A DNA stretch of 64,000 nt from an uncultured Anaerolinea sp. (lineage in GTDB: Bacteria; Chloroflexota; Anaerolineae; Anaerolineales; Anaerolineaceae). A model generated the notes under the pieces. The model did no database searches. It had not been told where the DNA came from and saw only the letters and a list, made by a program, of their open reading frames with translations. The position numbers and the translations under genes are program-made. The stretch is taken from contig CAYPJS010000078.1 in NCBI GenBank assembly GCA_964411135.1, positions 111,495-175,494 of the forward strand. Reading direction: 5' to 3'. The first letter of the stretch is position 1. Each line of letters starts with the position of its first letter. Below are positions 12,707 to 35,361 of this stretch, in pieces.

Positions 12707-12779
12707 AGCCACCGAAGGGATTCGGACCCTTGACCTGGCGTTTACGAAACGTCTGCTCTGCCAGCTGAGCTACGGTGGC
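12707..12779 (-). tRNA. tRNA-Thr (anticodon CGT), no encoded CCA
   Basis: GCCACCG/CGGTGGC acceptor stem, GCTC/GAGC D-stem, anticodon loop TT-CGT-AA, AAGGG/CCCTT T-stem; 73 nt. Confidence 0.9.
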
Positions 12780-32284: not shown

Positions 32285-33229
32285 GTGACCACCATGGTTT
32301 GCAATACCTGTGGTGCGCGGGCAGTTATTCGTATGCGCCAGCACCGGTTATCCCTTTGCCAGGTGCATTATCTGGCCTGGATCGTCGATCAAACCCAACG
32401 TTTCATCAAGAAATATGAAATGTTATCTGTTGAGGACCGAATTCTGGTCGCGGTTTCCGGCGGCAAGGATTCGCTGGGATTGTGGGATGTATTATGGCGG
32501 CTTGGATACCAGACTGAAGGGCTATACCTGAATCTAGGCATTGATGGTGAAGATCATTATTCGGTAACATCTTTGGCGTACGCCACGGACTTCGCACAGG
32601 CTCGGCAGCTTAAACTCCATGTTGTGGAAGTGAAGCAGCTGCATGGTCAGACTGTGCCTGAGCTCGCCAGGATTACACCCCGCGGCCGGGGCAAACCCTG
32701 CTCGGTTTGCGGTATGGTCAAACGGCAAGGTATGAACCGTACTGCAGTCGAGTTGGGTTTTGATGTTCTGGCGACTGCCCATAACCTGGACGATGAGGCT
32801 GCCTTCCTTTACGGAAACGTTATGGACTGGAATATCCGCCAGATGCGGCGACAGGCTGTCGTTTTACCCGAAAAGGAGGGATTTGCCCGAAAGGTGAAAC
32901 CTTTTTTCCGTTTTACCGAGCGTGAAACGGCGGCTTATGCCTTGCTGCGCGGGATCGATTATATTGAAGAAGAATGCCCTTATGCCATTGGCACCAAGCA
33001 AATTGATTACAAAATTCTGCTTAATCAAATGGAAGAAGCCCAGCCCGGTTCCAAACTGCGCTTTGTTCTGGGTTTTTTACAAATGAGGGCGGAAGGGTAT
33101 TTTCCATCCGAGACTTATGAAGAGGACGGGCTTTTATTGCGGCCTTGCCCTGGGTGCGGACAGCAGACATCCAGTGAAGGCTTGTGCAGCTTGTGCCGAC
33201 TGATCGAACAGCCAAAAAAGGAAGCTTAA
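32285..33229 (+). CDS. ttuA: tRNA 2-thiolation enzyme, TtuA/Ncs6 type
   Basis: N-terminal CNTC...LC..H, PP-loop SGGKDS, CSVC, ATAHNLDDE, EECPY, C-terminal CPGC...CSLC. Confidence 0.88.
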   Translation: MTTMVCNTCGARAVIRMRQHRLSLCQVHYLAWIVDQTQRFIKKYEMLSVEDRILVAVSGGKDSLGLWDVLWRLGYQTEGLYLNLGIDGEDHYSVTSLAYATDFAQARQLKLHVVEVKQLHGQTVPELARITPRGRGKPCSVCGMVKRQGMNRTAVELGFDVLATAHNLDDEAAFLYGNVMDWNIRQMRRQAVVLPEKEGFARKVKPFFRFTERETAAYALLRGIDYIEEECPYAIGTKQIDYKILLNQMEEAQPGSKLRFVLGFLQMRAEGYFPSETYEEDGLLLRPCPGCGQQTSSEGLCSLCRLIEQPKKEA

Positions 33230-33282: not shown

Positions 33283-34620
33283 TCACGCTGTTTGCAGGAA
33301 GTTGCTGATTTCCCAATCTGTTACATGGATCCGATAGTCGTCCCATTCAGCACGTTTTGCCCTGAGGAAGGTTTCGAACAACGAAGCGGGGAATGCACTT
33401 TTCACTACTTCGTCCTTCTCAGCTTCATCCAGTGCCTCCTTGAGCGAGCCAGGGAGTTCTGAAACACCCAGTTCAATTCGCTCGTCGCGTGATAGTTCGT
33501 AAACATTGATGTTGTTCAATGGATTTGCCGGTTTCAGATCGCGGTCCAAACCATCCAGTGCGCAAGCCAGCATGGCGGTCAGCGCCATATAAGGGTTGCA
33601 GGATGGATCCGGGCAGCGCAGTTCTGCACGGACCGCTTTCTCCTGCCCGGGGGTGTATCGCGGGATGCGGATAAGCGCCGAGCGGTTTACCTGCGCCCAT
33701 CCGACATAAACCGGCGCTTCATACCCTGGAACAAGCCGCTTATAGGAATTGACGGTCGGTGCAACCATTGCGGACAAGCCGCGGGCATGATCAAGCTGGC
33801 CGGCAATAAAACCGTAAGCCAATTTCGATAGTTTGAATGGATCACTGTCATCAAAGAACAGGTTGTTGCCAGCTTTGTCAAAAATCGATTGATGGCAGTG
33901 CATCCCGGAACCATTGATCCCGTAAATGGGCTTGGGCATAAAGGAAGCAATCAGTCCATTCTGGGCAGCGATCGCCTTTACAGTGTATTTGAGGGTTTGG
34001 ACGTTGTCGGCTGCCCGCAGCGCGTCTGCAAAGCGGAAATCGATCTCGTGTTGACCCAAGGCTACCTCGTGATGCCCGACCTCGATTTCAAGCCCCATCT
34101 GGTCAAGAGCTTCCATGAGCTCGGTTCGCACTCGCACCGCCTCATCGTTGGGTGAAAAATCAAAATAGCCGCCAACATCGTGAGGTACCGGGTGGATGGA
34201 TTGTCCACCGTTCTGGCGGAAGAGGAAAAATTCCGGTTCTGGACCAATATTGTAGGTCCAGCCGCGATCCTTTAACTTTGCCAGCAGTCCTTTGAGGTTT
34301 CCGCGCGGGTCGCCGGGAAAAGGTGTCCCATCCGGCTGATAAATGTCGCAGAAAATACGGGCGCGGCGGAGCTCCGGAGGGGTCCACGGCAAAACCGCAT
34401 AGGTATCCACATCGAGCCGCAGATGCATATCGGACTCTTGTATACGGGCAAATCCCTCCACGGACGAGCCGTCGAACCATACCCCATTTTCGAGCGCGCC
34501 TTTTAGCTGTGAAACCGGCGCATCGACTGATTTCACAACCCCCATCACATCCACAAATTGATAGGAAACGAATTTGACGTTATCAGCTTTAACACGTTCC
34601 AAAATATCTTTTGTTTCCAT
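33283..34620 (-). CDS. glnA: Glutamine synthetase type I
   Basis: FDGSSVEGF, ESDM, GPEPEFFLF, HHEVA.GQHEI, FMPKP..G.NGSGMH.H, NSYKRLVPGYEAP, NRSALIRIP, ELR.PDP; ATG 34620 with GAGGG RBS. Confidence 0.97.
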   Translation of the reverse strand: METKDILERVKADNVKFVSYQFVDVMGVVKSVDAPVSQLKGALENGVWFDGSSVEGFARIQESDMHLRLDVDTYAVLPWTPPELRRARIFCDIYQPDGTPFPGDPRGNLKGLLAKLKDRGWTYNIGPEPEFFLFRQNGGQSIHPVPHDVGGYFDFSPNDEAVRVRTELMEALDQMGLEIEVGHHEVALGQHEIDFRFADALRAADNVQTLKYTVKAIAAQNGLIASFMPKPIYGINGSGMHCHQSIFDKAGNNLFFDDSDPFKLSKLAYGFIAGQLDHARGLSAMVAPTVNSYKRLVPGYEAPVYVGWAQVNRSALIRIPRYTPGQEKAVRAELRCPDPSCNPYMALTAMLACALDGLDRDLKPANPLNNINVYELSRDERIELGVSELPGSLKEALDEAEKDEVVKSAFPASLFETFLRAKRAEWDDYRIHVTDWEISNFLQTA

Positions 34621-34649
34621 GAGAACCCTCTTTTCGTACCTCATTAAAT

Positions 34650-34967
34650 AAAAAAGCATGCCCGGGCATGCCTTGATTTAATGATCCGATTTCAACATGG
34701 CAGCCCTTCCAACGAACACCAGAAACACTTAAAGCTGTGTTTCTGATCACTATGCAGGACTTGTGCATGACGTCGCCGTCAGTTTTCGTCCAAGCATTTC
34801 TCGGAAGGGAGAAGGGAGCCTGTGATCGGGCTCCGAAGGCATCCGCTGATCGATCGATTTTTCCCTGTATCAGGGTTAGCGCCCTCCTCGCGGAGGGGAA
34901 CCTTCACCTCGTTACCTCACCCATTGGATGAGGTTCAGCCGCTCTCTCACCATATTTAATTGTTAGA
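34650..34967 (-). promoter_or_regulatory. Structured glnA 5' leader ending in an intrinsic terminator (candidate attenuator/riboswitch)
   Basis: Hairpins at 34914-34934, 34882-34897 (GCGA tetraloop), 34863-34875, 34815-34834, 34720-34745; terminator GCAUGC-CCGG-GCAUGC-UUUUUU at 34650-34671. Confidence 0.6.
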
Positions 34968-34973
34968 TGCCCT

Positions 34974-35002
34974 ATGCTACCGAGTATCCAGGAAAATGTC
35001 AA
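34974..35002 (-). promoter_or_regulatory. Sigma70-type promoter of glnA
   Basis: TTGACA (34997-35002) - 17 nt - TAGCAT (34974-34979) on the minus strand. Confidence 0.75.
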
Positions 35003-35031
35003 TAGCTGCCATCAGAAAAACTCGCTGAGTT

Positions 35032-35361
35032 TTATTTTTTGGGAAGAGATAAAGCAAATTTGATCCCTTCTTCTACCCATTTTTTTAATTCGGTATCGTC
35101 CTGAAGACCTGCCGGCTCGACATACAGCCACCCTTTCATAGGCTTCCCGGTCAAATCAAACGGCCGTGTAAACGGCTGTTTCAGTGCCCGCTCATAGATT
35201 TCAACGCCTACCCGGACAATCAGATTATCCCCATATACACCGCATGCCATGTTCCCATTGACCAAATACCCAATCCCGCCAAACATCCTTTTCTCGGCGA
35301 AATGGATTGTTAATGGCAGGATTTTTAAGATTCGTTCCGCAAGTTTTAGGTCGTTTGCCAT
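35032..35361 (-). CDS. TfoX/Sxy N-terminal family protein
   Basis: EKRMFGGIGYLVNGNM, LIVRVG, PF..TGKPMKGW, W. Confidence 0.9.
   Translation of the reverse strand: MANDLKLAERILKILPLTIHFAEKRMFGGIGYLVNGNMACGVYGDNLIVRVGVEIYERALKQPFTRPFDLTGKPMKGWLYVEPAGLQDDTELKKWVEEGIKFALSLPKK

Follow-up and report, generated by a model that had tools for sequence, protein, structure and literature searches.

A conserved glmS-class ribozyme variant with an added helix and a terminator platform in the glnA leader of Anaerolineales

Among natural ribozymes, only the glmS ribozyme is known to use a metabolite as its cofactor. Canonical glmS ribozymes act through mRNA decay, and in Bacillus the 5′-OH product of cleavage is degraded by RNase J. 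McCown, Roth and Breaker (RNA 17:728, 2011) reportedly counted 463 representatives, of which "all but two" were in glmS mRNAs; their rare variants from Deinococcus-Thermus are said to have changed supporting substructures as well as extra stems within or close to the catalytic core, to reside in glmS mRNAs still, and to have been described without a terminator platform. A 2019 review restricts the class to the 5′ untranslated regions (UTRs) of glmS (PMC6765202), a 2017 survey describes the ribozyme as regulating glmS (PMC5473149), and both depict it as working without an expression platform. Here we analyzed a stretch of 64,000 nucleotides (nt) from an uncultured Anaerolinea sp. (contig CAYPJS010000078.1, hereafter the window) and found that the leader of its glutamine synthetase gene, glnA, is a real and conserved cis-regulatory RNA. 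It is a glmS-class ribozyme that precedes a new target gene and carries both a terminator platform and a new helix. In the full-text literature we found no published description of such an arrangement of a glmS-type ribozyme before glnA, and the element is absent from the description given in a 2026 preprint covering glmS and Chloroflexota.

As evidenced by a permissive E-value scan of 34500–35150, the leader matches the glmS ribozyme family RF00234. This single significant match runs from 34954 to 34742 on the minus strand and covers the model end to end (1–167) with 25.4 bits and an E-value of 6e-4, while the Rfam scan at gathering thresholds gave nothing here. A first-pass annotation had proposed a new class of nitrogen-responsive riboswitch or attenuator at this place. 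The conserved cis-acting leader with a terminator before glnA stands, whereas the new class gives way to a known family, even if the family matches weakly and below its gathering score. We likewise saw no resemblance to the glutamine riboswitch, the T-box or the other riboswitches that the annotation had compared by eye: no other riboswitch family (glutamine riboswitch RF01739, T-box, others) matched within 34500–35150 at gathering score or at E ≤ 10. Its consensus comparisons did not include glmS. The glutamine riboswitch of cyanobacteria is also a leader RNA for nitrogen-assimilation genes, but its fold, size and presumed ligand are unrelated to those of the glnA element.

The RF00234 alignment recovers A^GCG, with the caret at the cleavage site, ACGAGG, CGGAUGCCU, the AAA and ACA-AG strands of the internal loop and the GNRA loop. 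It also shows insertions of 49 nt, in the P2 loop, and of 26 nt, after P3, and the shortfall in score is mainly due to these insertions and to an altered P2.2. The per-genome E-value of the element is 6.8e-4; at E ≤ 0.01, the only control genomes to match were B. subtilis and D. radiodurans, both above the family cut-off. The source genome has exactly two RF00234 matches, one in the glnA leader and one on another contig (C24:38545–38731 of the source genome, G000; locus L001 1501–1687, minus strand). The second copy, at 39.3 bits, is found some 90 nt before a true glmS, identified by a product starting MCGIVGYIG. By genomic place the window's element thus departs from the family, as the gene downstream is glnA and glmS has its own copy. 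Core strands and two extra hairpins, P2a and P2b, are common to both copies. We regard the homology of the glnA leader to glmS ribozymes as almost certain. The lack of any Rfam family at gathering score could also be read as a wholly new riboswitch class unrelated to known families, but we consider this extremely improbable in view of the full-length match at E 6e-4, the paralogue before glmS and the shared core strands and architecture.

Among 40 genomes sampled from the same genus, family and order, RF00234 gave 55 matches in 39 genomes. Identification of the downstream genes with tblastn returned glnA for 26 of the 55 matches, glmS for the other 29 and nothing else. The glnA-linked matches sit about 110–160 nt before glnA; two of these relatives exceed the gathering score (39.1 and 37.9 bits) and the remaining ones score 22–36 bits, so most of the glnA-linked lineage is missed at present Rfam thresholds. 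Phylogenetic analysis of the core region puts the copies linked to glnA ("N") and those linked to glmS ("S") on either side of a single branch (support 95/94, 96% of bootstrap trees), which indicates that they are old paralogues and not recent duplicates. When a sample of 400 genomes from across the class was searched with a signature pattern, the N type came up only in the window's own order, where the pattern revealed a further family (f15) carrying the N type, again before glnA. Six chance matches of this search (L062–L067) were discarded; they are without the P1 hairpin and resemble coding sequence. The 80 nearest glnA loci were also taken from a species-level genome collection, and about 50 of them have an N-type core within 520 nt upstream. 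Their records bear the names Bellilinea, Anaerolinea, Thermanaerothrix, Leptolinea, Longilinea, Pelolinea and Brevefilum, all Anaerolineae (Chloroflexota), and the carriers in Thermanaerothrix include two isolates, T. daxensis GNS-1 (L082) and T. solaris (L085). Overall, the element before glnA is kept across several families of the order, and a glmS ribozyme appears to have been co-opted for the control of nitrogen assimilation. Two further loci, L059 (genome G038) and L060 (genome G418), have full N-type elements and terminators ahead of genes other than glnA; named by eye from sequence, these encode one EamA-like membrane transporter and one AraC/methyltransferase (Ada-like) protein.

The ribozyme part of the leader is laid out as follows, with helix nomenclature and mutational maps taken from PMC7125110 and PMC11602151.

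Between 34943 and 34942, minus strand: predicted cleavage site, between A-1 (34943) and G1 (34942), aligned to A^GCG of RF00234
34941–34935, minus strand: P2.2 5′ strand CGGCUGA, pairing with UCAGCG at 34849–34844, one G (34940 or 34939) bulged
34934–34914, minus strand: P1 hairpin
34913–34899, minus strand: core strand AACGAGG, the counterpart of canonical GACGAGG and holding the P2.1 5′ strand, together with the P2 5′ strand
34907, minus strand: candidate general-base G, the last G of the GACGAGG equivalent
34905–34901, minus strand: P2 5′ strand GAAGG, followed by a conserved UU at 34900–34899
34897–34882, minus strand: P2a, extra hairpin in the P2 loop, GCGA tetraloop
34875–34863, minus strand: P2b, extra hairpin in the P2 loop
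34862–34835, minus strand: core 3′ strands AAAAAUCGA (P2.1 3′ strand), UCAGCG, GGAUGCC and CCUUC (P2 3′ strand, 34839–34835)
34857–34855, minus strand: cofactor-pocket UCG
34834–34815, minus strand: P3 hairpin GGAGCC/GGCUCC
34827–34822 with 34750–34745, minus strand: P3.1 pseudoknot, GAUCAC in the P3 loop with GUGAUC
34797–34745, minus strand: P4/P4.1 domain with a GCGA tetraloop and the purine-rich internal-loop strands GAAAAC and ACAAG

The first-pass annotation had already drawn a GCUGA/UCAGC helix enclosing three hairpins, one with a GCGA loop. The hairpins are P1, P2a and P2b at the positions above, and the enclosing helix (34939–34935 with 34849–34845) is P2.2. The purine-rich linkers that it noted between them (AACGAGGUGAAGGUU, AAAAAUCGAUCGA) are present too, and we identify them as conserved catalytic-core strands of the glmS ribozyme.

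The 322-nt leader folds at −119.4 kcal/mol, compared with −97.4 ± 5.5 kcal/mol for dinucleotide shuffles (z = −4.0). Structure statistics were obtained from a MAFFT alignment of the 26 glnA leaders and yielded the conservation and covariation that the first-pass annotation had looked to relatives for. Taking the glmS architecture and the terminator together, 91.8% of cells are paired, with compensatory double changes at 40 of 78 pairs; none of 500 shuffles reached the observed values, and shifting the partner columns by 1–3 lowers pairing to about 40–44%. Double changes occur at 7/9 pairs of P1, 5/6 of P2a, 3/6 of P3, 8/8 of P4 and 4/5 of P4.1. P3.1 is paired in 97.4% of cells (double changes at 1/6 pairs) and appears in the variants GGUCAC/GUGACC and GACCAC/GUGGUC. 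In the alignment, covariation therefore supports P1, P2a, P3, P3.1, P4 and P4.1. P2 is 100% paired with double changes at 1/5 pairs, and P2b has double changes at one pair. P2.2 is paired in 98.5% of cells and its sequence is almost invariant; for P2.2, as for the added helix P5 described below, near-invariance among these 26 close leaders makes double-change counts uninformative. P2a and P2b are also found in the glmS-linked copies of the order, and it is this region that Rfam treats as a 49-nt insertion.

The catalytic strands A^GCG, ACGAGG, AUCGA and GCGGAUGCC are invariant. AGCG (34943–34940) and ACGAGG, the latter in agreement with the RF00234 consensus, are each the same in 26/26 leaders, and the CG of ACGAGG pairs with the CG of AAAAUCGA to form P2.1. 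Further downstream there is no variation in AAAAUCG and AUCAGCGGA.GCCU and hardly any at the U of GGAUGCC, and the region fits the RF00234 consensus CGGaUGcCuC. The AAA, GNRA loop and ACA-AG of the P4/P4.1 domain align to RF00234 as well. Ten single mutants at seven positions (G1, C2, G3, A27, C28, G56, G57) do not cleave (PMC7125110). Measured against the essential-position list of catalytic and pocket nucleotides from PMC7125110 and PMC11602151, the 26 leaders have all seven without exception, along with the pocket UCG and the final G of GACGAGG. Deviations cluster by the active site, where a bulged G replaces C4, A6 is changed to U and G53 to A, and a U stands for the conserved A after GACGAGG. 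The canonical P2.2 5′ strand is CGCCAGA with A6 bulged (PMC7125110); in the glnA type this bulge has moved inward. In vitro, some activity is regained with shifted P2.2 bulges (Andreasson et al.; PMC7125110), which makes an active ribozyme plausible but not assured. We consider ligand-dependent self-cleavage of the glnA-linked element likely.

The same changes can be read differently. The pocket may have been retuned within the same fold to another amine-bearing metabolite that reports nitrogen status. Invariant changes particular to this lineage adjoin the active site, namely a bulged G4 in P2.2, U for A6 together with A for G53, and U for the conserved A after GACGAGG, besides a variable G26 position, and the N and S lineages are kept apart across the order; variant riboswitches with changed specificity are known for guanine (PMC9295807). 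On the other hand, the nucleotides reported for pocket and active site (G1, C2-G56, G57, the UCG of P2.1, A27-C28) are unchanged, and glucosamine-6-phosphate (GlcN6P) is itself a sensible signal of glutamine sufficiency, so we regard an altered ligand as quite improbable. Still less probable, and by a clear step, is a non-catalytic relic that only binds its ligand, or a stand-alone small RNA (sRNA) of about 315 nt acting in trans. The sub-threshold Rfam score and the altered P2.2 would suit a relic, and a discrete RNA would be released at the terminator; but invariance of the cleavage-site and catalytic nucleotides across families is hard to explain without catalysis, and the element always lies directly before a gene and in the same orientation, which speaks against an sRNA.

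Compared with canonical glmS ribozymes (B. subtilis, B. anthracis, Thermoanaerobacter tengcongensis), the glnA type shares A^GCG, the nested double pseudoknot P2/P2.1/P2.2 and its strands ACGAGG, AUCGA and GCGGAUGCC, P1, and the P3/P3.1/P4/P4.1 domain with its purine-rich internal loop and GNRA tetraloop. Both lie in a 5′ UTR, and the product of the gene that follows has a metabolic link to the ligand (the substrate of GlmS is glutamine); both occur in hosts with RNase J. The glnA type differs in its place before glnA, in a P2.2 bulge at G3/G4 instead of A6, in the two added P2-loop hairpins and in a P3-P4 junction that is pyrimidine-rich and about 17 nt long, compared with about 4 nt in the canonical form. 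Moreover, a helix named P0 ties the 5′ cleavage product to this junction, and the RNA continues into a P5/antiterminator/terminator platform; its Rfam score stays below gathering. The glmS-linked copies of the genome and order (the C24 copy; L001, L003–L011, others) have P2a, P2b, the GAUCAGCGGAUGCC strand, P0 and the tract after P3 in common with the glnA type. However, their P2.2 5′ strand is AGCGCAUGG, with the three canonical proximal pairs kept, where the glnA type has AGCGGCUGA; they have GAGGAUGAAGG in place of GAGGUGGAGG; and they fall on the other side of the 95/94 branch, without R element or terminator.

The features added to the ribozyme are listed below.

34951–34945, minus strand: P0 5′ strand GG(U)GAGA, just 5′ of the cleavage site, pairing with UCUCCC at 34812–34807
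34814–34803, minus strand: pyrimidine tract CUUCUCCCUUCC, between P3 and P4, nearly invariant
34744–34721, minus strand: variable hairpin AGAAACAC...GUGUUUCU, between ribozyme and R element
34710–34699, minus strand: R element GGAAGGGCUGCC, nearly invariant, with the P5 3′ strand GGAAGGG at 34710–34704
34706–34699, minus strand: antiterminator strand GGGCUGCC, overlapping the P5 3′ strand in GGG
34674–34646, minus strand: terminator-like hairpin AAGGCAUGC-CCGG-GCAUGCUUU with a U-rich tail (9-bp stem, 4-nt loop, U6)
34672–34664, minus strand: terminator 5′ arm GGCAUGCCC, doubling as the antiterminator partner

The 5′ part of the pyrimidine tract pairs with the leader to form P0, and its 3′ part, CCCUUCC (34809–34803), pairs with GGAAGGG (34710–34704) to form P5. 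In the window the P0 duplex amounts to −7.3 kcal/mol. Across the 26 leaders P0 is paired in 85.7% of cells, with double changes at two pairs, and its purine run reads GGAGAAA in most N copies; the column-based count is weak for the window's subgroup, in which the register differs by a bulged U. Covariation of P0 is plain in the glmS-linked copies, which show GGGAUAGA/UCUAUCCC, GGGGAAU/AUUCCCC, GGGAAGG/CCUUCCC and GAGGGA/UCCCUC. P5 is paired in 97.3% of cells, and more distant relatives show compensatory versions of it (CCCUUCU/AGAAGGG in L081, CCCUUUC/GAAAGGG in L129), where the flanks covary as well, for example CCUGG/CCAGG. At the variable hairpin, relatives also have a hairpin, of differing sequence and length; by columns 54% of it is paired, in a part of the alignment that is unreliable.

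The terminator-like hairpin had been described in the first-pass annotation as GCAUGC-CCGG-GCAUGC-U6 after further hairpins and 30 nt before the start codon, and we found all of this as described. The hairpin is 100% paired in the 26 leaders, with double changes at 3/8 pairs. An unbiased duplex search returned GGGCUGCC/GGCAUGCCC as an antiterminator of −14.7 kcal/mol with one bulged base, in the same columns in 22/26 leaders. Pairing stands at 98.4%, with a double change at one pair in this close set, and the duplex is re-shaped yet kept further away: CCCAUU/AAUGGG in Thermanaerothrix, GGGCGU/ACGCCC in family f15, and again in L129. Compensatory variants were seen in L082, L084 and L129. Antiterminator partners picked by eye (R element with U tail, tract with the base of the terminator 5′ arm, CAGC mimics of P2.2) were unconvincing and were dropped. 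The helices form a chain of overlaps in which P0 and P5 share CCC (34809–34807), P5 and the antiterminator share GGG (34706–34704), and antiterminator and terminator share the whole 5′ arm (34672–34664). Transcriptional riboswitches likewise set an antiterminator against an exclusive intrinsic terminator with U tract just before the regulated gene; here, the proposed trigger would be the release of a strand after self-cleavage, passed on through overlapping helices, and not a rearrangement of the aptamer. We regard terminator/antiterminator control of glnA as fairly probable.

Based on this chain we propose the following mechanism. In uncleaved RNA the leader strand 34951–34945 would keep the pyrimidine tract in P0. 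The R element would then be free to capture the emerging 5′ arm of the terminator, and RNA polymerase would read into glnA. With plentiful cofactor, the ribozyme would cut between A34943 and G34942, and the 5′ fragment of about 25 nt, held by the 6–7 base pairs (bp) of P0 alone, would leave. The tract could then pair fully with GGAAGGG as P5, the antiterminator would lose its G-C clamp, the terminator would form and glnA would be off. Full-length transcripts cut later would carry a 5′-OH end and might, as in Bacillus, decay through RNase J, whose gene is present in this genome (576 bits), so that the classical decay of 5′-OH products is also available. Homology and the unchanged pocket nucleotides point to GlcN6P, the product that GlmS makes from glutamine, as the most likely cofactor. 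GlcN6P would signal enough glutamine and amino sugars and hence repress glutamine synthesis, and as it derives from glutamine, its repression of glutamine synthetase is physiologically sensible.

Constrained folding, with native helices enforced and pseudoknot strands blocked, agrees with this direction: removal of the leader strand moves the balance between terminator and antiterminator to the terminator in 23/26 leaders, by a modest −3.2 kcal/mol on average. Unconstrained minimum-energy folds gave a cleavage-dependent switch for the window's own sequence only. In 25/26 leaders they contained terminator and P5 both before and after cleavage, so a switch, if there is one, must operate kinetically and during transcription. 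From completion of the core to the U tract, RNA polymerase has about 185 nt to cover, and glmS ribozymes cleave at up to about 0.1–0.4 per second in vitro (PMC7125110, PMC11602151), making the timing feasible in principle. The coupling of cleavage to release of the tract is close to an even call, with the chances slightly against it.

A second line of evidence on the role of the tract comes from loci without a terminator. In several families other than the window's, the 3′ half of the tract in glmS-linked copies, UCCCUCC, is instead complementary to the glmS Shine-Dalgarno sequence GGAGGGA over 7–9 bp; the flanks of this pairing covary and z ranges from −3 to −5.7 (loci L003, L004, L008, L010, L013, L016, L017, L023, L025, L026, L030 and L050). 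The complementarity is absent from the glmS copies of the window's own genus. Sequence comparison thus suggests a Shine-Dalgarno-masking platform on glmS ribozymes of the order. Similarly, Brevefilum-type glnA leaders (L143, L141, L138, L124, L119) are without GGAAGGG/R element and terminator and have a shortened tract, which is complementary to the Shine-Dalgarno region of glnA (CCUUUUU/AAAAAGG in L143), while P0 covaries (AGGAAA/UUUCCU). Complementarity to the Shine-Dalgarno in terminator-less lineages points to the tract as an effector arm and not a purely structural element. We tentatively extend the proposal to Anaerolineales as a whole, with P0 on the 5′ cleavage product sequestering the tract, self-cleavage as an allosteric trigger beyond its part as a decay signal, and the freed tract either flipping a terminator or masking a Shine-Dalgarno; we think it somewhat likelier that this generalization fails than that it holds.

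Ribozyme and terminator might also work independently of each other. The ribozyme would then act through RNase J decay as in Bacillus and the terminator would be constitutive or under some other signal, such as a protein on GGAAGGGCUGCC, with P0 and P5 merely stabilizing the long P3-P4 junction. The RNase J gene, the occurrence of P0 in glmS-linked copies without a terminator, the P0/P5 overlap of only 2–3 nt, and unconstrained folds that give terminator and P5 with or without the leader all fit such an arrangement. Against it speak the strictly conserved chain of overlaps from P0 through P5 and antiterminator to terminator, the effector role suggested by a tract complementary to the Shine-Dalgarno where the terminator is missing, and the computed shift of balance on leader removal in 23/26 leaders, and we consider it unlikely. 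The reading we favor, and think reasonably probable, is that the glnA leader is a paralogous glmS-ribozyme variant fused to a terminator/antiterminator platform, with cleavage as the putative trigger.

Several observations weigh against this favored reading. The window's RF00234 score lies under the gathering score of 37 bits. The third pair from the cleavage site, C4-G54, is important (PMC7125110) and here gives way to the bulged G, a loss that could lower activity or alter the cofactor pocket. P2.2 and P5 are supported by conservation and few compensatory events only. The short P0/P5 overlap means that P0 may not exclude P5, and the unconstrained folds of 25/26 leaders are the same before and after cleavage. 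The terminator U tract is broken or displaced in some relatives; in Thermanaerothrix (L082, L085, L077) AUAAAC stands between the terminator-like hairpin and the U run, so that the U tract is about 6 nt off the stem and the hairpin may not be a classical or efficient intrinsic terminator there. Finally, GlcN6P, although the most likely ligand, is assumed by homology, and it would reflect nitrogen status only indirectly.

What emerges is a conserved and separately evolving glmS-ribozyme lineage before glutamine synthetase, joined to a terminator/antiterminator switch. If the proposal is true, it would widen the biology of this ribozyme from amino-sugar feedback to central nitrogen assimilation and would suggest how Anaerolineae regulate glnA, with GlcN6P or a related amine as a master signal over glutamine synthetase in a whole bacterial order. 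The element would then represent a cleavage-gated expression platform of an undescribed kind, a natural case in which a conformational switch is coupled to RNA cleavage, and could serve as a design principle for synthetic RNA devices.

The gene and promoter that frame the leader are as follows.

35002–34974, minus strand: sigma-70-type promoter, TTGACA (35002–34997), 17-nt spacer, TAGCAT (34979–34974)
34630–34626, minus strand: Shine-Dalgarno GAGGG of glnA
34620–33283, minus strand: glnA, from the ATG at 34620 to the stop at 33283, 445 amino acids (aa), N-terminus METKDIL conserved

The near-consensus promoter from which the first-pass annotation put the transcription start about 350 nt before the ATG is borne out: the promoter scan finds agreement with the consensus at 10/12 hexamer positions, and both hexamers are kept in most of the 26 related leaders. 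From it transcription is predicted to start near 34967, giving a leader of about 347 nt (about 34967–34621, minus strand). We also looked for a glnA promoter downstream of the terminator, which would take the gene out of the leader's control, and found no promoter-like site other than TTGACA-17-TAGCAT upstream of glnA and none between terminator and ATG. The product is a type I glutamine synthetase (TIGR00653 GlnA, 533 bits, cut-off 429). The ATG at 34659, which opens a mechanical open reading frame (ORF) of 458 aa, is not the real start, as it lies inside the terminator stem and the conserved N-terminus begins at 34620. Note that automatic annotation could over-extend glnA by these 13 codons, across the terminator (34621–34659, minus strand).

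A second glutamine-synthetase-like gene lies elsewhere in the genome (contig C127:62922–64301, plus strand), and its product is 38% identical to the window's GlnA. There is no glmS-type RNA match near it, and the ribozyme thus accompanies only one of the two paralogues. Within the window, a 109-aa ORF without a family match (35032–35361, minus strand) stops 30 nt short of the glnA promoter, and a TtuA-like tRNA 2-thiolation gene (32285–33229, plus strand; NF049949, 274 bits, below the cut-off) is convergent with the 3′ end of glnA. The sole Rfam match at gathering thresholds in the window is a tRNA gene at 12707–12779 on the minus strand.

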